This document shows, one piece after another, positions 3,116 to 21,160 of a stretch of DNA of 64,000 nt (the first letter of the stretch is position 1; each line of letters begins with the position of its first letter). The notes beneath the pieces are model-generated. The model was not told the origin of the DNA. It did not search any database and worked only from the letters and a program-made list of their open reading frames with translations. Both the position numbers and the translations under genes were made by a program. This DNA comes from Phycisphaerae bacterium (lineage in GTDB: Bacteria > Planctomycetota > Phycisphaerae > UBA1845): assembly GCA_029260035.1 (NCBI GenBank), contig JAJDEA010000079.1, positions 4,803-68,802 of the forward strand, read 5' to 3'.

Positions 3116-3269
3116 TTTCAGAAGTGCTTGTGGGGTAAGGAGTTATCTCTGCAAGTGTCATCAACCGACCTTCCTATTCGGCGGTAATTTGGCTGACATT
3201 GAGAGATCGAGACATCCGCCTCCTGTAGCTTGTCAACCACATCCTCTGGCAAATCTGAAATACACCTGG

Positions 3270-3360
3270 GTTTTGCGCAAGTTGCCAAATCTATAAGTTG
3301 TTCTAAAACATACCCGGTTTTTGCGCAGATTGCCGTTTCTATAAGTTGTTGTAAAATAAG
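3270..3360 (+). repeat. Two tandem ~45-bp direct-repeat units at the left end of copy 1, candidate transposase-binding sites
   Basis: Unit 1 is GTTTTGCGCAAGTTGCCAAATCTATAAGTTGTTCTAAAACATACC. Unit 2 is GGTTTTTGCGCAGATTGCCGTTTCTATAAGTTGTTGTAAAATAAGGA. Related half and full units recur at 12362-12430 and, diverged, at 20848-20900. Confidence 0.5.
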
Positions 3361-3640
3361 GACTTACGGAGATTGTTGATCCTAATCAATTGCGCTGCGC
3401 AGAACGGATCGGCGGTAGGAATCTGGGATTGGGCGCCGTGAAGGCGGGGGAGAATCGGCAATCGGCAATAGTAACGGCAATGTCCGAATTCGGACGAACG
3501 ATATTTCGCAGTGTGGCTGCAATTTCAAGACAACTGCCGAGCATGTGGTCTTCGACGGAATCGCTGGTCTTGGACGTCGTTCGGACCGCCTTCGACGGGA
3601 GTTTGGAAGCCGTTTGAATTGTGTCTGAAAACCATTCGTT
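3347..3640 (+). repeat. Conserved ~290-bp non-coding left-end block, paralogous to 12414-12705
   Basis: Nearly colinear identity with 12414-12705 by eye. It includes the palindrome TTGATCCTAATCAA and a run of CGGCAAT heptamers (AATCGGCAATCGGCAATAGTAACGGCAATG). It lies 3' of the leftward cargo genes in both copies. Confidence 0.6.
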
Positions 3641-3655
3641 AGGTGCTTCATCCAA

Positions 3656-5020
3656 CTATTGCTCATCCTTCACATTGAGTTGATCTGCGAGGCCTCTGAT
3701 AACTGGGTGCAACTTTATCGATGGAATCCTGTTAGACAATTCTCTATAAAAGGGCTCACGGCGATCGAGCATTTCCCGCACAGGATACGCATCGCTATCG
3801 CTCGTGACCAGTAATAGCATTCGATCAAAAATGCCCATTGCACTGAAGCGGTTGAGTCTGACAGAAGCGACGAGCACGGCTTCGAGTGCAAGAGTGCGAA
3901 TATCTGTGTCATCTGTTGATTCGTAAATGATTCGCATTCGTTTGGCGACTGAGTCTGCATAGGGAAATGCTTGGTTTCCAACGGCATCGTCAAGTGCCTG
4001 TACATATGCTTTGAGGACAGGTCGAAAATCATTTGCCGCCAGAGTCGCGGCGTTCGGGAGTATTTGCTGTGGGAGACGGTCAACCAATTCGAGGTAGGTT
4101 TCGCCCGAAGCGGGGATTGATTCTTGCGCGAGAAGCTGTAAGGCCTTGCGCAGGTCCTTAGCGCGATATTGGTGCCTCGCAACGCGTTCCTGGATTTGGG
4201 TGACTACGGCTTCGTATGCGCCAATCGGATTTGCTTCTGGGTCTTTTGCGACCCGGTAAATATTCACTCCGTCAAGCAATTCCCCAACGGTTTGATATCG
4301 CTCGTCGGGATGCTGTTCCGTGGCCCGTCGCACAGCGTGTTGGAGTCCAGGAGGTAATGCGCTTGGATCAATCAATGCAGGGTTGAGACCTGTGACAAGC
4401 TCATATAGAGTCTTGCCGAGTTGAAAAATGTCTGTACGTTCGTCCGCATCGCGACTACCTCCATCGATTCGCTGTTCTGGGGCGAGGTATCGTTCTGTGC
4501 CGATAACATGACGCTGTTTGGTTAGAATTGTAGTGTCACGCTTGCTTAGCTTTGCCAAACCAAAATCTGCGAGAACAACTGTCCCGTCAGCAAAGATTAG
4601 ACCATTCCCCGGTTTTATGTCGCGGTGAAAAGCTCCTGAGTTGTGGATCGCTTGTACACCTTCGCACAATTGCGTGAACGCGTCAAGTGCCATATCTTCG
4701 TCCTTCGACAGGGCATCCAGGCGTTTATCAAGACTGCTTTCGGCATAAGGCATCACGAAGTACGGCGGTTCTTTGTCAAGTTGAACATCTATGACCTCAA
4801 CGACGTTTGGATGGACTATATCCACGGCAATGCGTACTTCGCGACCGAATCTACGGATGGATTCATTGTCATCTCGATGGCAGTATTTGATAGCGACTAC
4901 TTTTCTATCGGTAAGACGCTCAGCCTTGACGACGGTGCCCATACCCCCAAACCCTACCTTGTCAAGTATGTGGTATTTGCCATCCAGAGTTGCGCCGGGT
5001 TTGAATTCATCTAGCCCCAT
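3656..5020 (-). CDS. Hanks-type Ser/Thr protein kinase (N-terminal kinase domain, ~180-aa C-terminal helical domain of unknown function)
   Basis: 454 aa. Gly loop GFGGMGTV, VAIK, HRDIKPGN, DFG, APE. Starts 10 bp after the stop of the upstream HTH gene, so it is likely co-transcribed. Confidence 0.8.
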   Translation of the reverse strand: MGLDEFKPGATLDGKYHILDKVGFGGMGTVVKAERLTDRKVVAIKYCHRDDNESIRRFGREVRIAVDIVHPNVVEVIDVQLDKEPPYFVMPYAESSLDKRLDALSKDEDMALDAFTQLCEGVQAIHNSGAFHRDIKPGNGLIFADGTVVLADFGLAKLSKRDTTILTKQRHVIGTERYLAPEQRIDGGSRDADERTDIFQLGKTLYELVTGLNPALIDPSALPPGLQHAVRRATEQHPDERYQTVGELLDGVNIYRVAKDPEANPIGAYEAVVTQIQERVARHQYRAKDLRKALQLLAQESIPASGETYLELVDRLPQQILPNAATLAANDFRPVLKAYVQALDDAVGNQAFPYADSVAKRMRIIYESTDDTDIRTLALEAVLVASVRLNRFSAMGIFDRMLLLVTSDSDAYPVREMLDRREPFYRELSNRIPSIKLHPVIRGLADQLNVKDEQ

Positions 5021-5030
5021 AGGGTTTGCC

Positions 5031-6461
5031 TCATTCTTGTTTACGTTTCTTATTAGTCATGCCCTTGTCACGCGGCGAGGCTTTCTTCCTCGCCGCTTTC
5101 GGTATCTTTCGCTTCGTAGTGGATGTCGCGCGACTCTGCTTTGGTGACTTCTTTGGTTTGGCTTCCGAACGCGACTTATCCGCTCCGACGTCATCGCTAC
5201 CATCAAGGATAAGCTGACCTGACACAAATAGCTGCTCCACATGGCTGTAGTCCGTCGATTCAATGGTCCCTCGTCGTAGCTCCCTGCGAATGCGCCTCTC
5301 TACTTTCTTGAGCAGATCGATTATCTCCTCGCGCTGCTCGTCAACACCGGGATCAAGTGCGTCTGGGCGTTTTGCGAAATTGAGCTGGAGTGGTTGCCGT
5401 CCAAGCCCATGAATCGATGACCAAGCGTGTGCATCGCTTAAGTTGTAGATTGTGTCGACGACGCATTGTAAGTTGAAGATCAGAGCCTCTCGTCCGAGCG
5501 ACGCCTTGGCGATGTCCGATGACAAAGTAGTGGTGAGGGACCCCATGATTGAAGGTCCAAAGTCGACGCGATCGGGAACATAGACATACTCACTCCGAGT
5601 TCGCGCTTCCTGTGTGCATGCCTCGGATATAAAAAACTCAACCTGACGACCGTTAACAGCCTCAACAACGTCACATGACACGGCATCGACACGAAATGAA
5701 TCGTCGTCATTTGGGTTGCTAAACCGCATCGTTAGAATCGTATCGGCGATTCCGCGCTCAATCGACCAATAAGAAAGTTGGGATATACACTCGTTCAAGC
5801 GGTCAGTACTGCTTAAGAGCCACCGACGATATGCTTCAGCCATCACTTCGGAGTATAGTCTCTGAAGCAGGTTTTTGTCGGTGACACTCGTAGCAAGGCG
5901 TAGCTCCTCCGACACAAACTCCTCGGGGATTGAGTATTCTGGCGTAGTTTCATTCTGGTACTGCGAATCGATCAAGCCAAGTTCGTACACAGCAGGAGGC
6001 CATGCAAGCAACCGAAAATCCAGATCAGCATGTCCCGATCGCAACGCCCACAGCATGAGCACCTGACTGGCTGAGCGCACTAGCGCGGATGTAAGGTCCG
6101 ATCCCGCCGGTGGTGAGTCGATGCCTTGAGGTACTTCATGATTCTCGACCGCCAACAGTCCGGCGATCAAGTTTTGGGCAATATCGTAGCCTGAGCTATA
6201 GAGTCGTTTGGCTTCAGTAGGTGAATTCCGAACATCTGCAAGGTGGAATAGTTGTCGGCGTTCGTGGTCAGATAAATCGAGCGCGTCAACGACTTGAAGA
6301 AGCACATACTTATTGATCTTACGACGTGAACGCTCCCAGTCGGAGATGAAATCCGGATTGCGGATATCCTTGAGACGTTGCGACAACGCGTGCGCGCTTA
6401 TACCGCGAGCTTTGCGAAGCGAGCGGAGTTGCTCGCCAAATCTATCTGGGGGGCGTTTCAT
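5031..6461 (-). CDS. XRE-type HTH protein, candidate repressor-c analogue of copy 1, with a large C-terminal domain and a lysine-rich tail
   Basis: 476 aa. N-terminal FGEQLRSLRKARGISAHALSQRL is an XRE-type HTH. The C-terminus KSRSEAKPKKSPKQSRATSTTKRKIPKAARKKASPRDKG is lysine-rich. It is transcribed leftward, divergently from the transposition genes. The N-terminal ~120 aa is homologous to 13399-14667. Confidence 0.6.
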   Translation of the reverse strand: MKRPPDRFGEQLRSLRKARGISAHALSQRLKDIRNPDFISDWERSRRKINKYVLLQVVDALDLSDHERRQLFHLADVRNSPTEAKRLYSSGYDIAQNLIAGLLAVENHEVPQGIDSPPAGSDLTSALVRSASQVLMLWALRSGHADLDFRLLAWPPAVYELGLIDSQYQNETTPEYSIPEEFVSEELRLATSVTDKNLLQRLYSEVMAEAYRRWLLSSTDRLNECISQLSYWSIERGIADTILTMRFSNPNDDDSFRVDAVSCDVVEAVNGRQVEFFISEACTQEARTRSEYVYVPDRVDFGPSIMGSLTTTLSSDIAKASLGREALIFNLQCVVDTIYNLSDAHAWSSIHGLGRQPLQLNFAKRPDALDPGVDEQREEIIDLLKKVERRIRRELRRGTIESTDYSHVEQLFVSGQLILDGSDDVGADKSRSEAKPKKSPKQSRATSTTKRKIPKAARKKASPRDKGMTNKKRKQE

Positions 6462-6589
6462 TCCGGGAATCTTACCACCTTCAGGGTTTATTGGTATCTT
6501 ACTGGGCTTTCCAAATAATCACGGCAAATTTCCGGATTATTTTATTGACATTCCGGATTTAATCTGGTATTCCCGCGTTCGTGGAAACT
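6462..6589. promoter_or_regulatory. Divergent control region of copy 1 with two TTCCGGATT direct repeats (candidate operators)
   Basis: AATTTCCGGATTATTTTATTGACATTCCGGATTTAATC lies between the leftward repressor-like gene and the rightward regulator/transposase operon. The corresponding region of copy 2 (14668-14788) has a different sequence. Confidence 0.35.
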
Positions 6590-6826
6590 ATGGAGCCGAG
6601 ATTTCGACGCGATGCGATCCGGGAGTTAATGGAACGTGAGGGTCTAAACGCCAGCGCCTTCGCATCCCGAGCCTCGGTTCAAAGAACGCTGATTGGCGGA
6701 TGGTTGGCAGGCGTCGTGACACCGCAGGTCGGAACGCTTACGCGTCTATGTCGCGTGTTCAATGTTCCGATCGATTTCTTCTTCGACCAGGCGCCGAGCG
6801 ATCCGGTTAAGCAAGGAATGGTATGA
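6590..6826 (+). CDS. Small HTH-like DNA-binding protein (Ner/Cro-position regulator)
   Basis: MEPRFRRDAIRELMEREGLNASAFASRASVQRTLIGGWLAG... Paralogue at 14789-15034. 4-bp ATGA overlap with the next gene. Confidence 0.5.
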   Translation: MEPRFRRDAIRELMEREGLNASAFASRASVQRTLIGGWLAGVVTPQVGTLTRLCRVFNVPIDFFFDQAPSDPVKQGMV

Positions 6827-7134
6827 GTAGAAGCACAGACAACACGAAGCCAATCCCACGGGTAACGGTGCGGTGTCTGAATCGGGTTCTCATCGGCGAG
6901 CGCATCCATGATCTTCGAGTCGAACGCGGCTGGAAGGCTCTTCAATTAGCACGCGCGACGGGAATTCCACGAAGTACGATTGCTGCGATCGAAACCGGTC
7001 GAATGCTCCCGGACCCTGACAGATTTCTGGTACTCGCCGCAGTGTTTTGCATTTCGGTCGATTTTCTCATGACGGGTAGATCATCGCCCGTCGAGGCTAT
7101 GCATGATGGCAACGAGCACACAAACGAGAACTGA
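6823..7134 (+). CDS. XRE-family HTH regulator
   Basis: GWKALQLARATGIPRSTIAAIETGRMLPDPDRFLVLAAVFCISVDFLM is a typical HTH_3 domain. Paralogue at 15031-15330. Confidence 0.65.
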   Translation: MSRSTDNTKPIPRVTVRCLNRVLIGERIHDLRVERGWKALQLARATGIPRSTIAAIETGRMLPDPDRFLVLAAVFCISVDFLMTGRSSPVEAMHDGNEHTNEN

Positions 7135-7669
7135 GGATATGAACGCAAATGCAATAGGGCGAAGCGTACCTTTCCCAGGCGAATGGGTGACGATTTCCGA
7201 AGCCGTACGACTGACGGGCGAACGACAGGGAATATGGTGTCGACGCGCTAACCGTGAATTTAGCAATGCACTAGACGTCGGTCGCGCCTCACATGCGATC
7301 AAAGCACCCATTGGCGGTGGCAGTTCCCGAATCATTTGGTGGCTATATCGCGGGCTTGACGCACGCTTGGCATTGGATTTGGACGAACAAATTCGTCGAG
7401 ACAAGGCCAGTGTTTTTCCATTCTCGAAAGAGAAGCAAAAGCGAGCTTGGCGCCGATGTCGTTGGGTCGTTGAGTGGCGTCGACTATGTAACGAGGAACC
7501 CAAAGGTGGACGAACACGAAGACAACTCGCCGGGCTAGTTGTGAGCGCGGCGAAACTGATAGACGGCAATTGCTTCAAGATCAGTATCCGATCACTTCAG
7601 GGATGGTGGCGTCGCTATGCTGCCATAGGCCGTGGTGGCGGTATCGTCGGAGTCGAAGGGTTGATATAA
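7103..7669 (+). CDS. Stand-alone paralogue of the MuA-like transposase N-terminal DNA-binding region (candidate transposition regulator)
   Basis: GEWVTISEAVRLTGERQGIW...RIIWWLYRGLDARLALD...FKISIRSLQGWWRRYAAIGRGGGIVGVEGLI aligns with the N-terminus of 8268-10613 (DWLTVDQAARLTGDSPRTIRW...AVWLIHRRLDHRL...FTVSVRSLQIWRRAYNDTTPGGRIAGIAGLI). Confidence 0.55.
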   Translation: MMATSTQTRTEDMNANAIGRSVPFPGEWVTISEAVRLTGERQGIWCRRANREFSNALDVGRASHAIKAPIGGGSSRIIWWLYRGLDARLALDLDEQIRRDKASVFPFSKEKQKRAWRRCRWVVEWRRLCNEEPKGGRTRRQLAGLVVSAAKLIDGNCFKISIRSLQGWWRRYAAIGRGGGIVGVEGLI

Positions 7670-7722
7670 ACGATGCGACTGGTGAGAGTCATAGGGACGA
7701 CACAAGGATGATGGAGGCAACG

Positions 7723-8019
7723 ATGACGAGTACCAAGAAGCGAGCGAAGACGAAACGTGCTCGAAGCGTAGCCAGCGTCAGTCGCAAGACGGCGACGGCC
7801 AAGACAAGAAGCAATCGAGACCGGAAGCTCGTGCTAAGTGTTTCTGACGTTGCGATTTTGGACCGAATGCTTGAGGACGGTTCAATCAGTGAGGTCGTCA
7901 CTTTGTCAGCGAGTGATCTGGCGACTTGGGTTCACAACGCCGGAACCGACGCGGATCGAGCGGAAGCGCTCGTGGCAGTCTTACCGGTAGCGAGGCGTGT
8001 GTACGCGCGATGCAATTAG
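7723..8019 (+). CDS. Hypothetical protein with Arg/Lys-rich N-terminus (conserved in both copies)
   Basis: GGAGG lies 5 nt before the ATG at 7723. MTSTKKRAKTKRARS... Paralogue at 16203-16500. Confidence 0.4.
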   Translation: MTSTKKRAKTKRARSVASVSRKTATAKTRSNRDRKLVLSVSDVAILDRMLEDGSISEVVTLSASDLATWVHNAGTDADRAEALVAVLPVARRVYARCN

Positions 8020-8020
8020 A

Positions 8021-8230
8021 ATGACCGACACGATCGACAGTCCACAGGTCTTTCCGTTTCGACCGGACATGTGCCGAGCTATTGAGCACACGGACACGCC
8101 GGAGCGTGAGGCGGCACTACGGCAGGCGCACGCGCTCATCGATCGGCTCGGAACAGCGGACGTGATTGCGACACTCCCGGTGTTGGGCAAATACGCCCAT
8201 TCGGTAGAGCAGGAGCGTAGGCCTGTTTGA
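8021..8230 (+). CDS. Hypothetical small protein (conserved in both copies)
   Basis: MTDTIDSPQVFPFRPDMCRAIEHTDTPEREAALRQAHALIDRLG... Paralogue at 16502-16711. Confidence 0.4.
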   Translation: MTDTIDSPQVFPFRPDMCRAIEHTDTPEREAALRQAHALIDRLGTADVIATLPVLGKYAHSVEQERRPV

Positions 8231-8267
8231 ACGGAGATAGGCTGGACAGAATCGCGAGTAGAAATCC

Positions 8268-10613
8268 ATGGCGTTAGTGGCACGAAATCTTGCGACGGAA
8301 ATCGACGAAAGGGATTGGCTGACAGTCGATCAGGCCGCACGTCTTACCGGCGATTCGCCGCGTACGATTCGCTGGCGTGCTTTGAATGAAGCTGGTGATT
8401 CACGTCGTAGCGGACGAATGCCGCTAGCCCGGAAAGCACCGTCTCGCGATGGCCGAACGAAGGCCGTATGGCTGATTCACCGACGCCTGGATCATCGTTT
8501 GTCCCGCAACGTAAGTAAGCCCGACCGAGAAAGCCGCGATCGTAACGTGCTTCTCGAAAAGTATCCGAAACATGCCATCGATGGAGCCTATCGCAAGGCT
8601 CACTGGCTCCGACGATGGGATCAACTTTGTCAGGAACATCGATTAGCCGGTGAGTCCGAACTGACACTTGCTCGGAGAGTCGTTGCCGAGGCCAAAGCCG
8701 TTGAGGCGGGTCAATTCACTGTGAGCGTACGAAGCCTGCAAATCTGGCGAAGGGCTTATAACGACACAACACCCGGTGGTCGAATTGCCGGTATTGCAGG
8801 GTTGATCGATCGGCGCTCGTTATCCGGGAATCGCGACGGCGGTGCTACTGGCTCAGTTGAGGGACGGTCGCCCGACGCGGTCGAGTATTTTTATGGTTTG
8901 TATCATTGCCAGAGCAGGCCGAGTGCCAAGACGTGCCATGCCGCAACACTTCGAGAATCCAATCGGCAGGGATGGGAATGGTCGGTGAGTTATTCCGCAA
9001 CATTGAAGTGGCTGAAAGTCTACGACGATCGTTCGGTGACGTGCCTCATGCGTGAGGGACACGACAAGTGGGCACGGAAATACATGGCGCACAATGAGGT
9101 TGATTACTCACTGATTGATCCGGGAGCGCTTTACGTTTGCGATCACACTCAGCTTGACTGCTGGTGCGAGCACGACGGGAAGCAACTACGACCGTGGCTG
9201 ACGGCGATACAGGACTGTCGTAGTCGTCGGATCGTCGGGTACCACGTCGGCATCGCACCGCATCAAGACGCGATTGTTGCAGCCATGCTTATGGCATTTC
9301 GAGAATGCGCCATACCGGAACGTATGCGGATCGATAACGGTCGGGATTTTACGTCTCGGCTGTTGACTGGCATTACCAAGGCAACCCGCGACCGGCTGCG
9401 CACAGAGCACGGACCAGACTGGCACCGCGTTCTCAAGCGAGACGCGAATCTTGTCGAGTGTGTCGATTCGCGGTTCATGGGTATCGTGCCGGAGCTTGGC
9501 ATCGAGCTAGTCTACGCGATTCCGTACGCGCCTTGGTCCAAGGGGCAACTCGAGCGCTGGTTCCGAACCTATCACGACCTGTGCTGCAAAACGTTTGCGA
9601 GTTATTGCGGGAATTCGGTGCTGACGAAACCGGAGTGTTTGGAAGCAATTCGTCGCGGCTATACGAAGGATCAAAAGCGGCGCCTTCGCAAGCGATACGG
9701 CAGGGCATGGAAGAAAGTGGCCGTGCTTCGGTTCGTCGATACTCGTGATGTACCAACACTGGATCAAGTGCGAGCGGCGACGGCTGAATCGATCGAAGTT
9801 TATCATCGCAGCCCGCACAGCGCCGACGATATGGGCGGTCGCACGCCCTTTGAAGTGTGGGGTACAGCGACGACGCTTCGCCGTGCCGAGGATCGCGACC
9901 TATTGTTCTTCATGCAGTCGCGTGGCGTCTACAAAGTTGGCCCCAATGGTGTTGGGTTCCGGGTTGGGAACAGGCGGCTCACCTACGGTGCTGCCGCACA
10001 GGAGCTTTACCGGCTTCGTGGCCGCGATGTGTTCATCACGCTCGATCCGTCCGACTTGTCGCACTGCTACGCTTGGACGCCAGAGCGTGCCAACCGCCGA
10101 TTCATTGTACGGTTGGATTCCAATGATCGACTATCACCTGCTGCAACGGTCGATGATTTGCGGGAAGCCAGCGCCACGATAGAGCGGCGGCGGAAGATTG
10201 GACGCAAGGCGCAACGTGAAGCACCCAAGCGAATGCGGTCAGTATCACAGGAACTCACGGCTCAGCGTCGCGAGCATGTGCAGGAACTTCGTGCGACCGG
10301 CACGGATGGGAAACCAAACGCCAATGTGAAGGTCGTCCGAACGGGGTTTGAAGGGGCATCGAAACCGGTTCGGACGCCATCCGCAAGCGGAAGTGCAAGA
10401 GACTTGAGTGCCGAGCGCGAGGCGCTTGGGTTTGTGCCGCCGCCTCCCGATCCTGAACCGAAACAGGAACGCGCGACGTTGGATATGATCGCTGGGAATG
10501 TGTGCTTGCCCAAGGATGGTAGCGAGCAAAAAGACGGCAAGGACGCCGAGGAGCCTAAATCGGACTTGCTCAGTCTGATTGCGGGGAATCGGCATGAACG
10601 AACAAACGAATAA
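8268..10613 (+). CDS. MuA-like DDE transposase (rve-type integrase core)
   Basis: 781 aa. N-terminal Mu-type DNA-binding region. Candidate catalytic triad D (VCDHTQLD), D (RIDNGRDF), E (PWSKGQLERWF). The long C-terminal region probably contacts the ATPase. Confidence 0.85.
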   Translation: MALVARNLATEIDERDWLTVDQAARLTGDSPRTIRWRALNEAGDSRRSGRMPLARKAPSRDGRTKAVWLIHRRLDHRLSRNVSKPDRESRDRNVLLEKYPKHAIDGAYRKAHWLRRWDQLCQEHRLAGESELTLARRVVAEAKAVEAGQFTVSVRSLQIWRRAYNDTTPGGRIAGIAGLIDRRSLSGNRDGGATGSVEGRSPDAVEYFYGLYHCQSRPSAKTCHAATLRESNRQGWEWSVSYSATLKWLKVYDDRSVTCLMREGHDKWARKYMAHNEVDYSLIDPGALYVCDHTQLDCWCEHDGKQLRPWLTAIQDCRSRRIVGYHVGIAPHQDAIVAAMLMAFRECAIPERMRIDNGRDFTSRLLTGITKATRDRLRTEHGPDWHRVLKRDANLVECVDSRFMGIVPELGIELVYAIPYAPWSKGQLERWFRTYHDLCCKTFASYCGNSVLTKPECLEAIRRGYTKDQKRRLRKRYGRAWKKVAVLRFVDTRDVPTLDQVRAATAESIEVYHRSPHSADDMGGRTPFEVWGTATTLRRAEDRDLLFFMQSRGVYKVGPNGVGFRVGNRRLTYGAAAQELYRLRGRDVFITLDPSDLSHCYAWTPERANRRFIVRLDSNDRLSPAATVDDLREASATIERRRKIGRKAQREAPKRMRSVSQELTAQRREHVQELRATGTDGKPNANVKVVRTGFEGASKPVRTPSASGSARDLSAEREALGFVPPPPDPEPKQERATLDMIAGNVCLPKDGSEQKDGKDAEEPKSDLLSLIAGNRHERTNE

Positions 10614-11736
10614 CGAACACGCCTTTGATCTTCTTTCTGAATCGTCGCGCGTGGCAAGGACGGCAAGGATGCTCGATCCGGATAAACAACTCAAGGACAA
10701 TCAGCGTAAAGACACTTGCGAACGTGTGCTTCGGTTTATCGAAGAACACGGCATCACCCAAGCAGCCGTGGCCCGCGAAGTGGGCATTAGCTCGACCACA
10801 ATCAGCGATATACTTCGTCTCCGGTACAAAGGCAAGACGTGTGATGCGCAGCTCGTCAAGTTGCATAATTGGCTTGAACTGGCCGCACGCCGCGAGAACC
10901 TCTTGCGTAACCGTCAATTCATTGAGACTTCGGTTGCGAAGGAAATCCTTCAAGTGGCCTCAATTGTCGCGGAAACATGCCGTATCGGTGTCATTTTTGG
11001 ACCTGCGCAGATCGGCAAGACGTTTGCGCTCACGGCGATCGAAGGTGACCAGCGATTCGGCGACCCGGTTCTCATACGGATCGATGAATCGATGCTCCGC
11101 CCTATGCCGGTGTGCCGTGCACTCGCGTCACGGTTTGAACTCAGCACGAATGGTCCGTTCGATACGCTATTCAGGCGGATCATCAAGCGGTTGGCAGGCA
11201 CCAAGCGCATGCTGATATTCGACGAAGTCGAACGCGTGAACTACAAGACGCTCGAAATGATCCGTGACCTGCACGACAAAACCGGCTGCCCTGTCTTGCT
11301 TGCAGGTAAACCGATGATCTTCGCAAGGCTCGGGTTTCGTGAGGTAGGCGATTTTTCGGAAGTAACGGACCAACTGGCCGCACGTGTTGTGATTCGGCGC
11401 GACCTTACTGAACGCACGCGTGGCGATCAACCCGAGCCGTTATTCAGCCTCGAAGACATACGCAAACTGATTGGTCGATCTGAACTGAATCTGCGAGTAT
11501 CGAAGGACGCCGAAAAGTGGCTGCAAGAAAGAGCATCCACGCTTGGCATGGGTGGCATCGGAGCCGCGCTCGTCGCACTTTATCTTGCCGCGAAAGTGGC
11601 ATTCTCGAAGGGCGGCGAATCGATCACAAATACTGATTTGGAAAAGGTTTCCGACTTAACGATCGGGCATGAGAGCGCGTCATACATCGCCGATGTGGTA
11701 GCAGAATCATCCGGTGTCATGCGGAGGGTTGTTTGA
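10594..11736 (+). CDS. MuB-like AAA+ ATPase transposition helper with N-terminal HTH
   Basis: N-terminal HTH GITQAAVAREVGISSTTISDIL. Walker A GPAQIGKT. Walker B LIFDEVE. Overlaps the end of the transposase gene by ~20 nt. Confidence 0.8.
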   Translation: MNEQTNNEHAFDLLSESSRVARTARMLDPDKQLKDNQRKDTCERVLRFIEEHGITQAAVAREVGISSTTISDILRLRYKGKTCDAQLVKLHNWLELAARRENLLRNRQFIETSVAKEILQVASIVAETCRIGVIFGPAQIGKTFALTAIEGDQRFGDPVLIRIDESMLRPMPVCRALASRFELSTNGPFDTLFRRIIKRLAGTKRMLIFDEVERVNYKTLEMIRDLHDKTGCPVLLAGKPMIFARLGFREVGDFSEVTDQLAARVVIRRDLTERTRGDQPEPLFSLEDIRKLIGRSELNLRVSKDAEKWLQERASTLGMGGIGAALVALYLAAKVAFSKGGESITNTDLEKVSDLTIGHESASYIADVVAESSGVMRRVV

Positions 11737-11783
11737 AATAACAAGGTTGTTCCGAACGGAACTCAATAGTTATCGCGGTGGAT

Positions 11784-13396: not shown

Positions 13397-13398
13397 AA

Positions 13399-14667: not shown

Positions 14668-14788
14668 GGCCGTATATTAGCCTCACAAGGTATATCCGCA
14701 ATGATATATCGTCGCGGCCATGGAAAGTGAAAATTATTTCATTTATTCTATAGACAAAGTAATTGAAATTACCGATAATCGAATCAGA

Positions 14789-15034
14789 ATGAATTTCTAT
14801 GAACCGAGATTTCGACGCGATGCGATCCGGGAGTTGATGGAGCGAGAGGGGCTGAACGCAAGCGCCTTCGCATCCCGAGCGTCGGTTCAAAGAACTCTGA
14901 TTGGTGGATGGTTGCCAGGCGTTGTGACACCGCATGTCGGAACGCTTACCCGCCTGTGCCGTGTGTTCGATGTTCCGATCGATTTTTTCTTCGACCAGGC
15001 GCCGAGCGATCCGGTTAACCAAGAAACGGTATGA
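14789..15034 (+). CDS. Small HTH-like DNA-binding protein (paralogue of 6590-6826)
   Basis: MNFYEPRFRRDAIRELMEREGLNASAFASRASVQRTLIGGWLPG... Confidence 0.5.
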   Translation: MNFYEPRFRRDAIRELMEREGLNASAFASRASVQRTLIGGWLPGVVTPHVGTLTRLCRVFDVPIDFFFDQAPSDPVNQETV

Positions 15035-15330
15035 GTAATAACACACCCAATACGAAGCGAATCGCACGCGTAACAGTGCCGTGTCTGAATCGCGTTTTGA
15101 TCGGCGAGCGCGTTCACGATCTTCGAGTCGAACGCGGCTGGAAGGCTCTTGAATTGGCTCGGGCAACCGGAATTCCACGAAGCACGATTGCCGCGATCGA
15201 AACCGGACGGATGCTTCCGGACCCTGACAGATTTCTGGCGCTCGCCATGGTGTTCGGTGTTTCGGTTGATTTTGTCATGCTCGGCGAACCGGTTCCCTGC
15301 GACGCAAGACAAGGACCAACGGATGCGTAA
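15031..15330 (+). CDS. XRE-family HTH regulator (paralogue of 6823-7134)
   Basis: GWKALELARATGIPRSTIAAIETGRMLPDPDRFLALAMVFGVSVDFVM. Confidence 0.65.
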   Translation: MSNNTPNTKRIARVTVPCLNRVLIGERVHDLRVERGWKALELARATGIPRSTIAAIETGRMLPDPDRFLALAMVFGVSVDFVMLGEPVPCDARQGPTDA

Positions 15331-16150
15331 AACGGAAGTCAACATTCCGGAAATTGTAGTGCCGCGAGTGACAAAATGCGGGATCGGCGTGCGACTCAAG
15401 CAGCTTCGGAGTAACCGCAACTTGACGGCTGAGTACGTTGCCCGAGCGATCAAACTCCCTACTCGATTTATCCGAACCGTGGAGCGGGGACGCATGATGC
15501 CGACGGCTGCGGAGCTTGTGGCACTTGCGGTGGTGTGCAGGACGTCCGTTGACTATCTCCTGATTGGCCAGTCTGCAACTCTCCACTGCTCAAACGATAG
15601 ATCGAGACGATCTCGCACGCTGCCAACGAGACCGATCGAGCAGCGCACGCCAGCCGCAGGCGAATGGGTCACCGTCCGTGAGGCCGCCCGGTTGAGCGGC
15701 GTGTCAGTTAGCAATTGGTACGCGCGTGCTATCCGCGTAGCCGAGTATGCGATGCGTACAGGAATTAAATCGCTAGCCGTCCATGCGCCGATTAGCAGGA
15801 ACGGATCGCGGCGCGTGTGGTGGTTGCATCGTTCGCTGGACGAACGATTGCGATTGGATTTCGACGCACAATTCAGGCTGGATCAATCCCGCAAGTTTCC
15901 ATGCTCCAAGGCACAACTTGAACGTGGAAGGCGACGGGCCAAGTGGGCTGCCGAATGGCGCAAGGCGTGCGACGCCCAAGCAAAGGGAAAACGAAACACG
16001 ATTGCGCTAGCGAAGCGCACAGTACGAAGGGCAAAACGCGCGGAAGGCTCGGGTTTCAAGATCAGCGTTCGATCTCTTCAGGGATGGTGGCGACGCTATG
16101 CAGGCTTAGGCCCTAACGGCGGTATCGCCGGAGTCAAAGGACTGATCTGA
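15323..16150 (+). CDS. XRE HTH fused to a MuA-N-terminal-like DNA-binding region (paralogue of 7103-7669 with an extra HTH)
   Basis: ATG at 15323 overlaps the previous stop. N-terminus VRLKQLRSNRNLTAEYVARAIKLPTRFIRTVERG is an HTH. C-terminus GEWVTVREAARLSG...RRVWWLHRSLDERLRLD...FKISVRSLQGWWRRYAGLGPNGGIAGVKGLI. Confidence 0.55.
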   Translation: MRKTEVNIPEIVVPRVTKCGIGVRLKQLRSNRNLTAEYVARAIKLPTRFIRTVERGRMMPTAAELVALAVVCRTSVDYLLIGQSATLHCSNDRSRRSRTLPTRPIEQRTPAAGEWVTVREAARLSGVSVSNWYARAIRVAEYAMRTGIKSLAVHAPISRNGSRRVWWLHRSLDERLRLDFDAQFRLDQSRKFPCSKAQLERGRRRAKWAAEWRKACDAQAKGKRNTIALAKRTVRRAKRAEGSGFKISVRSLQGWWRRYAGLGPNGGIAGVKGLI

Positions 16151-16202
16151 ATGGTTCAGTGATTAAGAGTCATAGCAACGGCACAAGGATGACGGAGGCA
16201 GC

Positions 16203-16500
16203 GATGACGACGACAAGGAAACGAGCGAAGACGAAACGTGCTCGAAGCGTAGCCAACGTCAGTCGCAAGACGGCGACGGCTAAAACAAGAAACAATCGAG
16301 ACCGGAAGCTCGTGCTAAGTGTTTCTGACATCGCGATTTTGGACCGAATGCTTGAGGACGGTTCGATCAGCGAGGTCGTTACTTTGTCAGCGAGTGATCT
16401 GGCGACGTGGGTTCACAACATCGGCACCGATCTGGATCGGGCGGAAGCGCTTGTGGCTGTCCTGCCCATAGCGAGGCGCGTGTACGCGCGATGCAATTAG
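16203..16500 (+). CDS. Hypothetical Arg/Lys-rich protein (paralogue of 7723-8019)
   Basis: GGAGG lies upstream of the ATG. MTTTRKRAKTKRARSVANVSRKTATAKTRNNRDRK... Confidence 0.4.
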
Positions 16501-16501
16501 A

Positions 16502-16711
16502 ATGACTGACACGATCGCCAATCCGCAGGTCTTTCCGTTTCGACCGGACATGTGCCGAGCTACTGGGCATGCGGACACGCCGGAGCGTGAGGCGGCGTTA
16601 CGGCAGGCGCACGCGCTCATCGATCGGCTCGGGACAGCGGACGTGATCGCGACGCTCCCGGTGTTGGGTAAATACGCCCATTCGATCGAGCAGGAGCAAC
16701 GGCCTGTTTGA
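16502..16711 (+). CDS. Hypothetical small protein (paralogue of 8021-8230)
   Basis: MTDTIANPQVFPFRPDMCRATGHADTPEREAALRQAHALIDRLG. Confidence 0.4.
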   Translation: MTDTIANPQVFPFRPDMCRATGHADTPEREAALRQAHALIDRLGTADVIATLPVLGKYAHSIEQEQRPV

Positions 16712-16748
16712 ATGACGATCGGTTGCATAGAACTGCGAGTAGGAACTC

Positions 16749-19100
16749 ATGGCGTTGGCTGTACAGAATCTTGAAAGAGAATGCGACGGCAAGGACTGGC
16801 TGACGATCGATGAGGCCGTGAGTCTTACCGGCGATTCGCCGCGAACGCTTCGCTGGCGCGCCTTGAAGGAGGCGGATGATTCACGTCGCAGTGGGCGAAC
16901 TCCACTAGCCCGAAAGGCACCGCCACGCGATGGTCGAACGAAATCAGTGTGGTGGGTTCATAGACGCTTGGATCGACGTTTATCTAGCTGTCCGAGCAAG
17001 CCCGACCGGAACGATCAGGACCGTGGAATGCTCTTGGAACGGTTTCCTGCCCATCAAGTCGAACACGCCTACCGGAAAGCGCGTTGGCTGCGTCAGTGGG
17101 AGCGCGCGTGCCAGCGCCGTCGGTCGAGCGACGTCACACAAAAGGCACTGGCGGAAAGCATTGTTACCGAGGCACGCGAAGTTGAGGGCGCCAGCTTTCA
17201 CATTAGTTACAGAGCGCTTCAACACTGGAGACGGGCATACAATGCGCGCCATGCGAACGGTCGAATTGCTGGGGTCTCAGGGCTAATTGATTGTCGGTCG
17301 ATTGAATCGCCAAAGGAAACCGACAGTGATACCAAGGGGTCGTCGGGAACTCGCGCTCCACAGTCCATAAATTTCTTCTATGAGATGTTCCACACCGAGC
17401 AACGCTTGAGCGTAAGGTTGTGTCACGAGTTGACAGCGCGTGAAGCCAAAAATAAGGGCTGGGCTTGGCCGCCGTCGTACAGTGCAACGTCTCGGTGGTT
17501 GTCACGCTATGACAACCGGTCCACTTCGTACCTGCTTCGCCATGGTACCGACGTGTGGTGCCATCGCTATATGCCGTTTCTTGAAATCGACTATACGGCA
17601 ATCGACCCCGGCCAGTTCTTTCAGACCGATCATCACCAGTGCGATTTTTGGATCGAACACGAGGGAAAGCAATTGCGCCCGTGGCTCACGATTGTGCAAG
17701 ACCTTAGAAGTCGGGCTGTGTGTGGATGGCACCTTGGCGTCAGTCCACACCAGGACGCCATCGCCGCTTGTTACCTCTCGGCATTCCGAAACTGGTCAAT
17801 TCCCGAAACGCTCCGGATCGACAACGGCAAGGATTTTGCGAGTCGTTTGCTGACCGGTGTCACCAAATCGACGCGTGAACGGTTGCGCCGAGAACACGGT
17901 TCAAATTGGCGACAAGTTCTCCGGAGAGACGAAAACCTAGTCGATCAAATTGATCCAAGGTTTGTTGGAATCACCGAAGAGCTTGGCATTGAAACGATCT
18001 ACGCAATCCCGTACAGCCCGTGGTCGAAGGGTATTACGGAGCGTTGGTTCGGTACGTTTGAAAACCGATGCGGAAAATCATTCACAACCTACTGCGGGAA
18101 CGCGGCATTCAACAAACCGCAGTGCCTGGACGTGATTCGGCGAGGCTACACCTCTGAACAAAAGCGTCGGCTTCGCAAGCGCCACGGTCGTGACTGGAAG
18201 AGAATCGCCGTATTGCGATTCGTGGACACGTCCGACGTCCCTACGCTGGATCAGGCACAGGCCGCAATCGGCGAGTATGTCGAAGAATACCACAATACGG
18301 CACATACCGCAGACGATATGGCGAATCGAACCCCCCTTGAAGTTTGGCAGACCGCGACGCAATTGCGACGGGCAGATGACACGGCTCTGCTTTTTCTCAT
18401 GCAGGCTCGCGGTGTGTACCGAGTCGGCCCTAACGGCGTCGCGTTCAAGGTCGGTGGTGTCCGCATGACGTACGGCATGGGGAATCAATACCTGTACAAA
18501 TACGTCGGTCGTGATGTGTTCATCACGATTGATCCGAACCACTTAGACTGTTGCTACGCCTTTACGCCAGACCGCGCCAATCGCCGCTTAATAGGACGGT
18601 TGGATGCGAACAAGCGAATCAGCCCAACGGCTACGGTGGCCGATCTTCGCGAGGCGAGTGCCGAAGTGGGACGGCGTCGGAAGATCATGCACAAAGCGGT
18701 TCGCGAGTCACCAGCCCGCACGCGGACCGCTGTTGACGAAATGGCCGCCAAACGTCGCGAGCGTGTGCAGGAACTCCGTGCGACCGGCACGGATGGAAAA
18801 CCAAACGCCAACGTGAAGGTTGTCCGAACAGGGTTTGAAGGGGCATCGAAACCAGTTCGGACGCCGTCCGCAAGTCGTAGCGCAAGAGACTTGAGTGCCG
18901 AGCGTGAAGCGCTGGGATTTGTGCCTGCACCTCCTGTTCCGGAGAAAAATCAGGAGCGTGCTACGCTGGATATGATCGCTTGGAATGTGTGCTCACCCAA
19001 GGATGGGAGCGAGCCAGATCATGGCACGGACGCCGAGGCGCCTAAGTCAGACTTACTGAGTTTGATTGCGGGGAATCGGCATGAGCGAACAGACGAATAA
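16749..19100 (+). CDS. MuA-like DDE transposase (copy 2)
   Basis: 783 aa. D (QTDHHQCD), D (RIDNGKDF) and E (PWSKGITERWF) are conserved. By eye, about two-thirds identical to copy 1, except the last ~100 aa, which are nearly identical. Confidence 0.85.
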   Translation: MALAVQNLERECDGKDWLTIDEAVSLTGDSPRTLRWRALKEADDSRRSGRTPLARKAPPRDGRTKSVWWVHRRLDRRLSSCPSKPDRNDQDRGMLLERFPAHQVEHAYRKARWLRQWERACQRRRSSDVTQKALAESIVTEAREVEGASFHISYRALQHWRRAYNARHANGRIAGVSGLIDCRSIESPKETDSDTKGSSGTRAPQSINFFYEMFHTEQRLSVRLCHELTAREAKNKGWAWPPSYSATSRWLSRYDNRSTSYLLRHGTDVWCHRYMPFLEIDYTAIDPGQFFQTDHHQCDFWIEHEGKQLRPWLTIVQDLRSRAVCGWHLGVSPHQDAIAACYLSAFRNWSIPETLRIDNGKDFASRLLTGVTKSTRERLRREHGSNWRQVLRRDENLVDQIDPRFVGITEELGIETIYAIPYSPWSKGITERWFGTFENRCGKSFTTYCGNAAFNKPQCLDVIRRGYTSEQKRRLRKRHGRDWKRIAVLRFVDTSDVPTLDQAQAAIGEYVEEYHNTAHTADDMANRTPLEVWQTATQLRRADDTALLFLMQARGVYRVGPNGVAFKVGGVRMTYGMGNQYLYKYVGRDVFITIDPNHLDCCYAFTPDRANRRLIGRLDANKRISPTATVADLREASAEVGRRRKIMHKAVRESPARTRTAVDEMAAKRRERVQELRATGTDGKPNANVKVVRTGFEGASKPVRTPSASRSARDLSAEREALGFVPAPPVPEKNQERATLDMIAWNVCSPKDGSEPDHGTDAEAPKSDLLSLIAGNRHERTDE

Positions 19101-20223
19101 CGAACACGCGTTTGATCTTCTTTCTGAATCATCACGCGTGGTAAGGACAGCAAGGATGCTCGATCCAGACAACCAACTCAAGGACAACCAGCGCAAGGAT
19201 ATTTGTGAGCGTGTGCTTCGGTTCATCGAAGAGCACGGAATCACCCAAGCATCCGTGGCTCGTGAAGTGGGAATCAGTTCCACAACGATCAGTGATATAC
19301 TTCGTCTCCGGTACAGAGGTAAGACGGGCGATGCGCAGCTCATTAAGTTGCACAATTGGCTTGAACTCGCCGCGCGGCGTGAGAATCTCTTGCGTAACCG
19401 CCAATTCGTTGAAACCTCCGTTGCCTTGGAAATACTCCAAGTGGCTACTGTCGTAGCGGAGACGTGCAAGATGGGTGTCGTGTTCGGTCCGGCACAAATA
19501 GGCGAGACGTTTGCGCTCACGGCAATCGAAGGCGACCAGCGCTTTGGCGATCCGGTTCTCATTCGGATTGACGAATCGATGCTTCGTCCGCTTCCTGTGT
19601 GTCGTGCGATCGCGTCTCAGTTTGAACTCAGTACAAACGGCCCGTTCGATACGCTATTCAGACGGATCATCAAGCGGTTGGCAGGCACAAAACGGATGCT
19701 GATTTTCGACGAAGTCGAGCGTGTGAACTACAAGGCGCTCGAAATGATCCGCGACCTACACGACAAGACCGGCTGCCCCGTGCTGCTTGCAGGTAAGCCA
19801 ATGATCTTCGCAAAGCTCGGATTCCGAGAGGTAGGCGACTTCTCCGAAGTGACAGACCAACTGGCCGCACGCGTTGTGATACGGCGCGACCTCACCGAGC
19901 GAACGCGTGGCGATCACCCGGCGCCGCTGTTTACTCTGAAAGACATCCGCAAACTGATCGGGCGATCCGATCTGAATCTAAAGGTAACGAAGGACGCGGA
20001 AAAGTGGCTGCAAGAGAGAGCATCCACACTTGGCATGGGTGGCATCGGGGCGGCGCTTGTTGCGCTCTATCTTGCTGCCAAAGTTGCGTTTGCGAAGGGT
20101 GACGAATCAATTACTAACGATCATCTGGAAAGAGTCACCGACTTAACGATCGGGCATGAGAGCGCAGCACACATTGCCGACTTGGTTGCGGATTCTTCCG
20201 GTGTCATGCGACGGGTCGTTTGA
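19081..20223 (+). CDS. MuB-like AAA+ ATPase with HTH (copy 2); Walker A lysine replaced by glutamate
   Basis: ~90% identical to copy 1 by eye, but the P-loop reads GPAQIGET (codon GAG at ~19504-19506, versus AAG at ~10996-10998 in copy 1). Confidence 0.8.
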   Translation: MSEQTNNEHAFDLLSESSRVVRTARMLDPDNQLKDNQRKDICERVLRFIEEHGITQASVAREVGISSTTISDILRLRYRGKTGDAQLIKLHNWLELAARRENLLRNRQFVETSVALEILQVATVVAETCKMGVVFGPAQIGETFALTAIEGDQRFGDPVLIRIDESMLRPLPVCRAIASQFELSTNGPFDTLFRRIIKRLAGTKRMLIFDEVERVNYKALEMIRDLHDKTGCPVLLAGKPMIFAKLGFREVGDFSEVTDQLAARVVIRRDLTERTRGDHPAPLFTLKDIRKLIGRSDLNLKVTKDAEKWLQERASTLGMGGIGAALVALYLAAKVAFAKGDESITNDHLERVTDLTIGHESAAHIADLVADSSGVMRRVV

Positions 20224-20270
20224 AATAAAAAGGTTGTTCCGAACGGAACTCGACAGTTATCGCGGTGGAT

Positions 20271-20717
20271 ATGATGATCGCAAGCATAAGAACAGAACGA
20301 GGTTCCAGCACGCCCAAGCAAAGACAACGGCTTCATCAACTCAAGAGGCGGTTGGGTTGGACAGACGATCAGCTTCACGAAGCGATCGGCGCAGTGAGTA
20401 CAAAGGTTCTGTCCGCCGCCGACGCGAGCCGTTGCATCCGTCGTCTAGGCGGTGGAGAGTTGCCGAATCCGCCGGGTCAAAAGCCAGCGCCTTATCAGGG
20501 GCGACGACAAAAGACCGACGCAACACGCATGATCGCTCCGGGACACAAGGAACAAATCGAGCGGTTGCTCTGTGAGCACTTCGGCGACTTGGAGTCCGGT
20601 TTGGCGTGGCTCGAAAAGAACTTTGACGTGAAGGATCCGCACGACCTTCTAACGGCAAAGCGGGCCGGTGAGGTGATCTATGTTCTCAAGGGGATGATCG
20701 AACGAACAAACGAATGA
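20271..20717 (+). CDS. GemA/gp16-like small protein (copy 2), tentative
   Basis: ~90% identical to 11784-12230. Confidence 0.5.
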   Translation: MMIASIRTERGSSTPKQRQRLHQLKRRLGWTDDQLHEAIGAVSTKVLSAADASRCIRRLGGGELPNPPGQKPAPYQGRRQKTDATRMIAPGHKEQIERLLCEHFGDLESGLAWLEKNFDVKDPHDLLTAKRAGEVIYVLKGMIERTNE

Positions 20718-20850
20718 GACGGCTTTGACCGTCATTTGAAGTGCCTTCGATGGCTATCCAAACAGCCTTCGGAATCTGAAAACCCACGACGCTCCCGACG
20801 ACTCGTTATACGCAAAACCCGAGTCGATCAGGGAGCGTTCGTCTTATGCC
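20718..20850 (+). repeat. Conserved right-end block of copy 2; a diverged left-end-like unit remnant follows to ~20900
   Basis: Matches 12231-12360. The following CGCCAAGTAGGTATTCAACTCGCCAAGTACGGAGCGCCTTTAGAG resembles the half+full unit at 12362-12413. Similarity to the left-end block stops after TTTAGAG. Confidence 0.5.
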
Positions 20851-21160
20851 CCGTTCGCCAAGTAGGTATTCAACTCGCCAAGTACGGAGCGCCTTTAGAG
20901 CAAATAACGTTTCTTCATGACCATTGCCTCCTTAGATCCAAACCGAAAACACTTCCCTAGCGGTGGATTGGTTCCAGGGGGTAAGGCCACTGGCTTATTG
21001 ATGATTGACGCCTGTTTTCGAAGACTCAGATTCCTACTGTCTGCGTCCACCACGAACGCATCCTGGGGGCACATGTATAGACTTGTCGATCCCGCTTTTG
21101 AATACCACAGAAAGTCCTAGGATGTTAATTGGGTGAGCCTAACAGGTGGAGGATTTTATC

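Follow-up and report, generated by a model that had tools for sequence, protein, structure and literature searches.

Two related Mu-type mini-transposons, probably derived from transposable phages, one nested in the left end of the other in a Phycisphaerae genome

A 64,000-nucleotide stretch of the genome of a Phycisphaerae bacterium (GenBank assembly GCA_029260035.1, contig JAJDEA010000079.1, positions 4,803 to 68,802; hereafter the window, to whose positions all coordinates refer) carries two similar gene modules, each encoding a MuA-family transposase and a MuB-like ATPase. One of these, the inner element (copy 1 of the initial annotation), occupies positions 3302-12412 and measures 9.1 kb. 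The other, the outer element (copy 2), measures 8.5 kb and is divided into 3254-3301 and 12413-20899, since the inner element lies within its left end. Each element is bordered by its own 5-bp target-site duplication, GTTGT at 3297-3301 and 12413-12417 for the inner element, and GCAAA at 3249-3253 and 20900-20904 for the outer one. It is likely, in our judgment, that these are two related, independent Mu-type mini-transposons, one nested in the other, that derive from transposable phages. Their boundaries are as follows.

3249-3253: GCAAA, left copy of the outer 5-bp target-site duplication, directly beyond the outer terminus
3254-3301, plus strand: outermost 48 bp of the outer left end, terminus TCTGAAAT..., severed from the remainder by the inner insertion
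3297-3301: GTTGT, left copy of the inner target duplication, the same bases as the last 5 bp of 3254-3301
3302-3655, plus strand: inner left end, non-coding, terminus TCTAAAAC, with TGCGC motifs, three CGGCAAT repeats at about 3455-3483 and a TTACGG motif
12231-12412, plus strand: inner right end, with a hairpin at 12301-12352 and two TGCGC-containing repeats, terminus ...CCCTTTAGA
12413-12417: GTTGT, right copy of the inner target duplication, which also belongs to the outer left end
12418-12706, plus strand: remainder of the outer left end, non-coding, a gap-free continuation of the alignment with the inner left end
20718-20899, plus strand: outer right end, terminus ...GCCTTTAGA
20900-20904: GCAAA, right copy of the outer target duplication

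The termini were defined from the ends of relatives found on metagenome contigs (given here as L numbers) and were then applied to the window. Seven independent right ends, those of both window copies and of L002, L095, L101, L102, and L007, are conserved up to ...CC(T)TT(T/C)AGA and are unrelated beyond that point. Four left-type termini open with TCT(A/G)(A/G)AA, and the consensus 5'-TCT(A/G)(A/G)AA ... TT(T/C)AGA-3' held in all elements examined. In both window elements the left end spans approximately 340 bp and the right end approximately 180 bp. The inner and outer left ends are 86% identical across their first 200 bp, and the same left-end architecture recurs in L095 and, over about 70 bp, at the terminus of the phage-type relative L008.

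The initial annotation had proposed a search for 5-bp duplications at precisely mapped ends, and exact pentamer pairs were indeed found immediately outside the termini of both elements, which had been set independently by homology. The probability of two exact pentamer matches at homology-defined positions by chance is about 1e-6. When 3254-3301 is joined to the sequence from 12418 onwards, a full outer left end results that aligns without a gap to the inner left end and to that of L095. The two 5-bp duplications together with this seamless outer left end establish a single nested insertion rather than a tandem arrangement, and because the inner element sits within the outer left end, the outer element must have been inserted first. 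Before that event, the chromosomal site would have read ...CCTCTGGCAAATAACGTTTC... with one GCAAA. The inner insertion point is an AT-rich stretch 48 bp inside the outer left end, and the two elements have the same orientation. The G+C content of the block is 50-58%, compared to approximately 60% on its left side.

This arrangement replaces the head-to-tail tandem pair originally described, in which copy 1 ended at 12360, copy 2 began directly after copy 1 and ended at 20847, and a third, degraded left end followed at 20848-20900. The right ends instead extend to 12412 and 20899, and copy 2 starts at 3254, upstream of copy 1. The supposed third left end consists of the terminal 52 bp of the copy 2 right end plus the first base of the duplication. 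A similarity of approximately 30 bp between the right ends and the outermost left end had also been considered as att-like direct repeats left by site-specific tandem integration, and a tRNA target was checked for while this interpretation was considered, but it was dropped once the target duplications had been found. That the right ends resemble the outermost left end in direct orientation stems from the partly palindromic nature of the end sequences.

The two modules are colinear, as first described, and blastn recovered four pairs of matching segments at 78-87% identity.

3319-3617 and 12384-12685: 83% identity
6588-7071 and 14797-15279: 87% identity
7574-8527 and 16055-17008: 84% identity
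9293-12413 and 17780-20900: 78% identity

Sliding-window identity is 80-90% in the left end, in the two small helix-turn-helix (HTH) regulator genes HTHa and HTHb, in the small genes sm1 and sm2 with the first ~50 codons of the transposase gene A, and from the A C-terminus to the right end. It falls to 48-67% in the gene for a paralogue of the transposase N-terminal region (AN) and in the transposase core, while the leftward arm cannot be aligned. The amino acid identity between copies is 88% for HTHa, 74% for HTHb, 46% for AN, 88-90% for sm1 and sm2, 90% for the ATPase, and 91% for the GemA-like protein. The transposases are 63% identical overall (72% for residues 1-60, 51% for 61-200, 61% for 201-650, and 82% for 651-781). 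All eight gene pairs are intact, with ratios of nonsynonymous to synonymous divergence (dN/dS) of 0.06-0.36, including 0.21 for HTHa, 0.36 for HTHb, and 0.19-0.25 for sm1 and sm2. Synonymous divergence (dS) is 0.26 for sm1 and sm2, 0.39 for HTHa, and 0.6-0.9 for B, G, and the A C-terminus, and is saturated elsewhere, including AN. Such mosaic identity points to modular recombination among diverged lineages. The mosaic and the recombination that it implies had been noticed before, albeit with by-eye figures that the computed values given above for HTHa, AN, and the A C-terminus do not bear out. The suggestion of gene conversion between the adjacent copies fared less well, because dS is at least 0.26 even in the most similar segments, which argues against recent conversion between neighbors, and the outer transposase is nearer to transposases from other metagenomes than to the inner one.

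Both elements share one layout. A leftward-read arm extends from the left end through one variable accessory gene and a long XRE-family gene to a divergent control region, and a rightward operon encodes two small XRE regulators, AN, two small proteins, the transposase A, the ATPase B, and a GemA-family protein before the right end. Translations of the open reading frames (ORFs) and searches against Pfam, NCBIfam, and PHROGs bore out the gene content first described, and with it the description of phage-derived, Mu-type elements that retain regulation and transposition, with variable genes placed between the control region and the left end. The genes are listed below.

3656-5020, minus strand: inner cargo, 454-aa Ser/Thr protein kinase (Pfam Pkinase 2e-37; PADLOC PD-T4-6 3.6e-55)
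5031-6461, minus strand: XREL1, 476 aa, N-terminal Cro/C1-type HTH (HTH_31) followed by a domain of ~400 aa of no known family
6462-6580: inner divergent control region between XREL1 and HTHa1, 45-67% identical to its outer counterpart
6581-6826, plus strand: HTHa1, 81 aa, XRE family (Pfam HTH_3/HTH_31), head of the early operon
6823-7134, plus strand: HTHb1, 103 aa, XRE family (Pfam HTH_3/HTH_31)
7103-7669, plus strand: AN1, 188-aa paralogue of the transposase N-terminal DNA-binding region, without the catalytic domain
7708-8019, plus strand: inner sm1, 103 aa
8021-8230, plus strand: inner sm2, 69 aa
8268-10613, plus strand: A1, 781-aa MuA-family DDE transposase (phrog_310 5.4e-77 over residues 14-704)
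10594-11736, plus strand: B1, 380-aa MuB-like AAA+ ATPase with N-terminal HTH and intact Walker A motif GPAQIGKT (phrog_296 5.2e-45)
11784-12230, plus strand: G1, 148-aa GemA-family protein (phrog_286 1.3e-3)
12707-13396, minus strand: outer cargo, 229-aa protein with 2-3 transmembrane segments predicted from hydropathy
13399-14667, minus strand: XREL2, 422-aa homologue of XREL1
14668-14788: outer divergent control region between XREL2 and HTHa2
14789-15034, plus strand: HTHa2
15031-15330, plus strand: HTHb2
15323-16150, plus strand: HTH-AN2, 275 aa, transposase-N paralogue with an additional XRE HTH fused to it
16189-16500, plus strand: outer sm1
16502-16711, plus strand: outer sm2
16749-19100, plus strand: A2, 783-aa MuA-family transposase (Pfam DDE_2 27.6 bits), 63% identical to A1
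19081-20223, plus strand: B2, MuB-like ATPase with Walker A motif GPAQIGET (K142E, codon GAG at 19504-19506)
20271-20717, plus strand: G2, GemA-family protein, 91% identical to G1

As judged from sequence, A, B, and G are affiliated with the transposition proteins of Mu. With a cut-off of 23 bits for Pfam DDE_2, A2 scored above and A1 below, and the other Pfam matches of the two proteins (rve, DDE_2, and Mu-transpos_C) were weak. The predicted catalytic residues D292, D356, and E429 fall in columns that are invariant over 36 homologues. The HTH_Tnp_Mu_2 and Mu-transpos_C domains are found in homologues of the transposase. When A was compared to cultured phages, the only matches were the "transposase A" of D3112-like phages and Sinorhizobium phage Aussie, at approximately 25% identity. 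The B gene lies directly downstream of A, and its product matches phrog_296, annotated as "DNA transposition protein," at 5.2e-45 and Pfam AAA_22 at 9e-14. In B2 the codon for the Walker A lysine is GAG instead of AAG, whereas GK[ST] is kept in 18 of 18 homologues with the GPxxIG motif. Either the interrupted element is decaying or the change is a sequencing error. As for the protein of about 150 aa annotated as GemA-like, the assignment stands at the level of the family, with 12 of 24 aligned members matching Pfam PF06252 (best 1.4e-7); the window protein itself matches no GemA model. A tblastn search of 50,697 phage records with this protein gave no match, and its predicted structure (pLDDT 84) had no convincing fold match in BFVD.

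The long XRE proteins of the two elements are 25% identical over 405 aa (E = 5e-21), and a homologue is present in the independent element of L095. The family comprises approximately 30 clusters at 50% identity. Profile searches recognized only the Cro/C1-type HTH in these proteins, and the AlphaFold model had a pLDDT of 45. The XREL1 gene occupies the place that the c repressor gene has in Mu and is read away from the early operon. The long XRE gene is a fast-evolving core gene at this position. The AN paralogues are 34-40% identical by tblastn to the first ~170 residues of the A proteins, and a counterpart of 183 aa occupies the matching position in L095. The outer AN has a third XRE HTH fused to it that is missing from the inner AN, and a similar HTH fusion of 239 aa occurs in L099. 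Neither sm1 nor sm2 matched a family in Pfam, NCBIfam, or PHROGs; an sm2-like sequence is also present in the phage-type relatives L010 and L085.

The true cargo is one gene per element, located downstream of the long XRE gene. The earlier idea of swappable cargo is upheld for this single variable gene. It does not extend to the 476- and 422-aa XRE proteins, which had been included in the cargo and which belong to the shared core, being found in L095 too. Residues 10-285 of the inner kinase match positions 5-278 of the 292-position PADLOC profile PDLC04042 (PD-T4-6) at 3.6e-55. The C-terminal half of approximately 200 aa is uncharacterized, and the generic kinase fold also matches PknB-type kinases. 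The outer cargo protein had no match in Pfam, NCBIfam, PHROGs, or PADLOC. In each element the accessory gene is predicted to be co-transcribed with the long XRE gene, in keeping with the transposable phage Fc02, in which exclusion genes are co-transcribed with the repressor (PMC9936078).

All ORFs between the termini were accounted for, and none encodes a head, tail, portal, terminase, or lysis protein. The absence of such genes in or beside the elements, which the initial annotation had pointed out, was further examined with the portal, terminase, gpT, and protease proteins of phage-type relatives, none of which had a tblastn match anywhere in the 64-kb window. Pfam and NCBIfam scans found no TnsA, TniQ/TnsD, or resolvase domain in the ORFs of either element, and the elements contain no direct-repeat array and, by Pfam, NCBIfam, and PADLOC scans, no Cas domain. 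The block does not form a conserved core region, and the target duplications place all termini of the two elements within the window.

Approximately 87 close homologues of the transposase were found, and those with a named source come from Planctomycetota or Phycisphaerae metagenome-assembled genomes; a profile scan of genome contigs with a two-sequence transposase alignment returned one short locus. The relatives occur in three contexts, as mini-elements, as full transposable phages, and as elements with capsid genes only. The same type of mini-element exists elsewhere, including one with two right flanks. This element, on L095, is flanked by host genes and encodes the long XRE protein, two HTH proteins, the N-paralogue, a small protein, A, B, a GemA-like protein, and three other small proteins. 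Its 9,512 bp (1472-10983) are 100% identical in L097 and L098, where the right flank differs and identity breaks off exactly after ...CCCTTCAGA. The pentamer CTCTC lies on the left of the element in L095 and on its right in L097/L098, while GACTC lies on the right in L095/L096, a pattern suggesting that the element has two insertion sites in that population and that its copies have recombined. In L002, L101, and L102, A, B, and GemA genes are followed by a right end of the mini type and then by host genes.

In the full phages (L094/L010, L008/L084, and L085), the genes for Mu F, portal, and terminase are on the minus strand upstream of the regulators, so that the structural genes occupy the arm in which the mini-elements carry cargo. 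A DEAD helicase gene follows the GemA-like gene in these phages. The capsid-only elements have a gpT capsid gene and a Mu-type protease gene beside A. In L093 (about 3800-13500), L013, L011, L021, L018, and L006, a gpT-like capsid protein, a Mu-type protease, and a 423-aa protein are encoded beside A and B. Host-like genes come directly after B in L093, and portal and terminase genes were not detected within 10 kb on either side, so L093 is possibly a capsid-encoding reduced element. In a neighbor-joining transposase tree (no bootstrap), the mini-elements form one clade that is sister to the L094 phage clade, and A2 is nearer to the homologue P0007 and to L002 than to A1.

Several observations weigh against two Mu-type mini-transposons as interpreted above. 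Termini of the form 5'-TG...CA-3' are typical of Mu, Tn7, and retroviral-type elements, and those found here are not of that form. The terminal inverted repeats are imperfect and no consensus for a binding site was established; candidate transposase-binding sites are TCTRRA and a TGCGC motif, which the repeats share at an equal offset of approximately 22 nt, and further TGCGC(R)AACGGA-like motifs. In a profile search against solved structures, A matched TnsB of the type V-K CRISPR-associated transposon (CAST) at 5e-18, slightly above MuA at 3e-13, which we ascribe to the shared RNase H core. The G proteins of the window remain under every GemA threshold, reaching only phrog_286 at 1.3e-3, and the putative repressor role of the long XRE protein is suggested only by its gene position and its HTH. 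An empty site for the window locus was not recovered, and look-ups of exact matches to the proteins of the flanking Fic and CzcA genes and to the GemA-like protein returned nothing. The pentamers flanking the L095 element, CTCTC and GACTC, are unequal, and a secondary rearrangement is needed to account for them.

Four other explanations were weighed. The elements could be helper-dependent satellites that a full Mu-like phage of their lineage would carry from cell to cell, packaging them by the headful from the shared left-end type along with adjacent host DNA. We hold this reading, which is compatible with autonomous transposition, to be unlikely. In its favor, full phages exist in the sister clade, the phage-type terminus of L008 has the left-end architecture of the mini-elements over about 70 bp, GemA and sm2 also occur in the early regions of the phages, intermediates have only capsid and protease genes beside A, and laboratory mini-Mus are packaged by helper Mu. 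No helper phage, however, lies within the 64-kb window, a packaging signal was not identified, genes for capsid-size redirection or helper interference were not recognized, and the mini B is only ~30% identical to B of the phage-type relatives. It is improbable that the elements are instead grounded prophage remnants whose morphogenesis genes were deleted after insertion and which, now immobile, are kept for their useful genes. Target duplications would survive an internal deletion, the outer B has lost its Walker A lysine, and L093 resembles a partially reduced element; but the inner, outer, and L095 elements share the reduced architecture, including the long XRE gene, although their transposase cores are synonymously saturated, so the reduction predates their divergence. 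Furthermore, the L095 element with its two right flanks at 100% identity, the eight of eight intact gene pairs with dN/dS well under 1, and the 9.1-kb inner unit with complete ends and its own duplication do not fit immobile remnants.

A transposon of the Tn7 or Tn5053 type, with TnsB/TnsC-like rather than Mu-type proteins, is very improbable. The best solved-structure matches of A are the TnsB proteins of CASTs, B has weak matches to TniB and TnsC, and the 5-bp duplication would fit as well, being also typical of Tn7 and Tn5053. Neither element, on the other hand, has genes for TnsA, TniQ/TnsD, or a resolvase, the full-length matches of A and B go to families of transposable phages, a GemA-family gene is present, and the sister clades are true phages with Mu portal, Mu F, and gpT genes. 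The ancient tandem duplication offered in the initial annotation, by unequal crossing-over between short end repeats and with later exchange of cargo, is barely credible. The copies are colinear and in the same orientation, and the final ~30 bp of the right end, read directly, are similar to the outermost ~30 bp of the left end. Nevertheless, two different 5-bp duplications lie exactly at the homology-defined termini, and the left end of copy 2 is made whole by the 48 bp that precede copy 1; the outer transposase is also nearer to P0007 and L002 than to the inner one, and divergence varies widely by segment.

For two nested Mu-type mini-transposons, we envisage the following course. The 8.5-kb outer element would have entered the chromosome at GCAAA, and the 9.1-kb inner element would then have entered the outer left end in the same orientation with duplication of GTTGT. 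The transposase A acting on sites in both ends, with B on the target, would make 5-bp staggered joins in a Mu-like manner, while AN might modulate binding of the transposase. The long XRE protein would serve as the immunity repressor. The gene downstream of it would be expressed in the quiescent state for the benefit of the host, as a PD-T4-6-like abortive-infection kinase in the inner element and as a membrane protein in the outer one. The mini lineage would have arisen from full transposable phages when the leftward morphogenesis arm was replaced. With its left end split by 9.1 kb of sequence and the Walker A lysine missing from B2, the outer element has probably lost its autonomy. It could be complemented in trans by the 90%-identical B of the inner element, or be moved as a composite of 17.6 kb. 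A bolder reading, which we rate as rather unlikely, is a natural reductive series within a transposable-phage lineage of Planctomycetota, leading from full phages through elements with only capsid and protease genes to mini-elements as defense-carrying satellites that are competent for transposition and are packaged by the headful with flanking host DNA by a helper Mu-like phage. If true, mini-elements replicated by their own A and B would be natural vehicles of "mini-Mu-duction," and the presence of one inside the end of another would imply that the lineage lacks or escapes Mu-type target immunity.

The closest parallel in organization is with Mu and the D3112/B3-like and BcepMu-like phages, ordered attL-c-ner-A-B...gemA. 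As in the mini-elements, a leftward gene in the repressor position diverges from an early operon headed by small HTH regulators, a DDE transposase of the MuA family precedes a MuB-like ATPase and a GemA-family protein, the target duplication is 5 bp long, the ends are asymmetric and several hundred bp in length, and one protein is paralogous to the N-terminal DNA-binding region of the transposase. The phages differ in having head, tail, terminase, portal, lysis, and Mor/C late-regulator genes, of which the mini-elements have none, in their size of ~37 kb compared to 8.5-9.1 kb, and in termini of TG...CA rather than TCT...AGA. Unlike in the Mu-type phages, the repressor-position protein of the mini-elements is a Cro/C1-HTH protein of 420-480 aa with a C-terminal domain of no known family, and not a transposase-N paralogue. 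Again unlike Mu, the phages related to this lineage have their structural genes leftward on the opposite strand and not downstream of B.

CasMu elements are CRISPR-associated, non-viral Mu-like transposons that are not yet experimentally characterized (PMC10910872, PMC11656645, PMC12669027). Like the mini-elements, CasMu (Altae-Tran et al. 2023) carries cargo, MuA and MuB, defined left and right ends, and an HTH protein. CasMu-I has an inactivated MuA paralogue, whereas the paralogue of the mini-elements comprises the N-terminal region only. By gene content, the mini-elements further differ in that they lack a CRISPR effector and array, have cargo consisting of a kinase or a membrane protein, and encode GemA and the long XRE protein. 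They are a CRISPR-less, GemA-containing variant of the known Mu-like transposons, with defense-like cargo and in another phylum. Laboratory mini-Mu derivatives such as Mud and mini-Mu(LR)/(LER) (reviewed in PMC3145075) likewise consist of Mu ends with A and B from which morphogenesis has been removed, and they transpose and are packaged given a helper. Those are engineered deletions, in contrast to the mini-elements, which are natural, diversified, under purifying selection, and present in several metagenomes. Phage satellites (P4, PICI, cf-PICI, and PLE) are similarly small and phage-derived, with most or all structural genes gone, and they often have defense genes and lie in defense-rich neighborhoods; they integrate by tyrosine or serine recombinases and replicate as episomes, whereas DDE transposition is predicted for the mini-elements. 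The kinase domain of the inner cargo matches nearly the full profile of PD-T4-6, a single-gene Ser/Thr-kinase defense system, but has the additional C-terminal ~200 aa, and its role in defense is a prediction.

The base-pair-resolved ends and duplications indicate that Mu-type modules persist and diversify as small cargo transposons without virion genes, of which the as yet uncharacterized CasMu elements were previously the clear non-phage examples. The occurrence of accessory or defense-like genes in the repressor-side arm, where sister phages have the morphogenesis arm, suggests a route from phage to transposon. The window also provides a natural case of a Mu-type element inside the end of another, which is unexpected under target immunity of the Mu kind. 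Being compact, at 9 kb, and having defined ends, the unit is a candidate transposition system for Planctomycetota, for which few genetic tools exist.

Further features were noted in the ends. A strong hairpin lies 60-110 nt inside the right terminus at 12301-12352 and 20788-20839, in L002 at 4360-4410, and also in L101 and L102. It reaches a DNA-fold z-score of -6.1 in the window, compared to -5.0 in L002, and is weak in L095. The base of the stem (ACGCTCCC/GGGAGCGT) is conserved, and the inner stem varies between elements yet stays complementary. The hairpin could either terminate the early operon or serve as a structure to which proteins bind. Three to four tandem CGGCAA(T) repeats lie approximately 150-180 bp inside the left-type end (3455-3483, 12523-12551, and L095 at ~1625-1655) and are kept across the mini-elements; they occur in the reverse complement in the phage-type L008 at ~19060-19100. 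They are a candidate subsite for a regulator or for the transposase. Several ORFs inside the left-end block, such as 3382-3666 on the minus strand, were rejected as genes because mismatches between the copies lack codon periodicity. An Rfam scan of 1-22000 gave no match, and no enrichment of sigma-70-like promoters was seen.

Additional observations concern the relatives. By eye, tRNA-like sequences are present approximately 120-130 bp past the right terminus in L002 (~4590-4665) and L007 (~3500-3560), with that of L002 resembling a minus-strand tRNA-Cys. Positions 13736-14059 of L008, located between B and the GemA-like gene, encode a protein of four 78-nt repeats with CxxC...CxxC zinc-ribbon-like motifs. 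For an inverted block that resembles a left end, on the right of L008, a neighboring inverted element was considered, but the block is more simply the terminus of the L008 phage itself. In L085, a second transposase-like ORF 8 kb downstream was considered as the partner in a tandem pair and proved to be an N-terminal paralogue in the phage-type right arm, beside the genes for the helicase and x431.

A Fic/DOC gene (1717-2856, plus strand) ends approximately 400 bp short of the outer left terminus at 3254 and matches the PADLOC SoFic defense model at 6.6e-123 as well as Pfam Fic_N and Fic. With this SoFic-type neighbor, the elements adjoin another defense-type gene.

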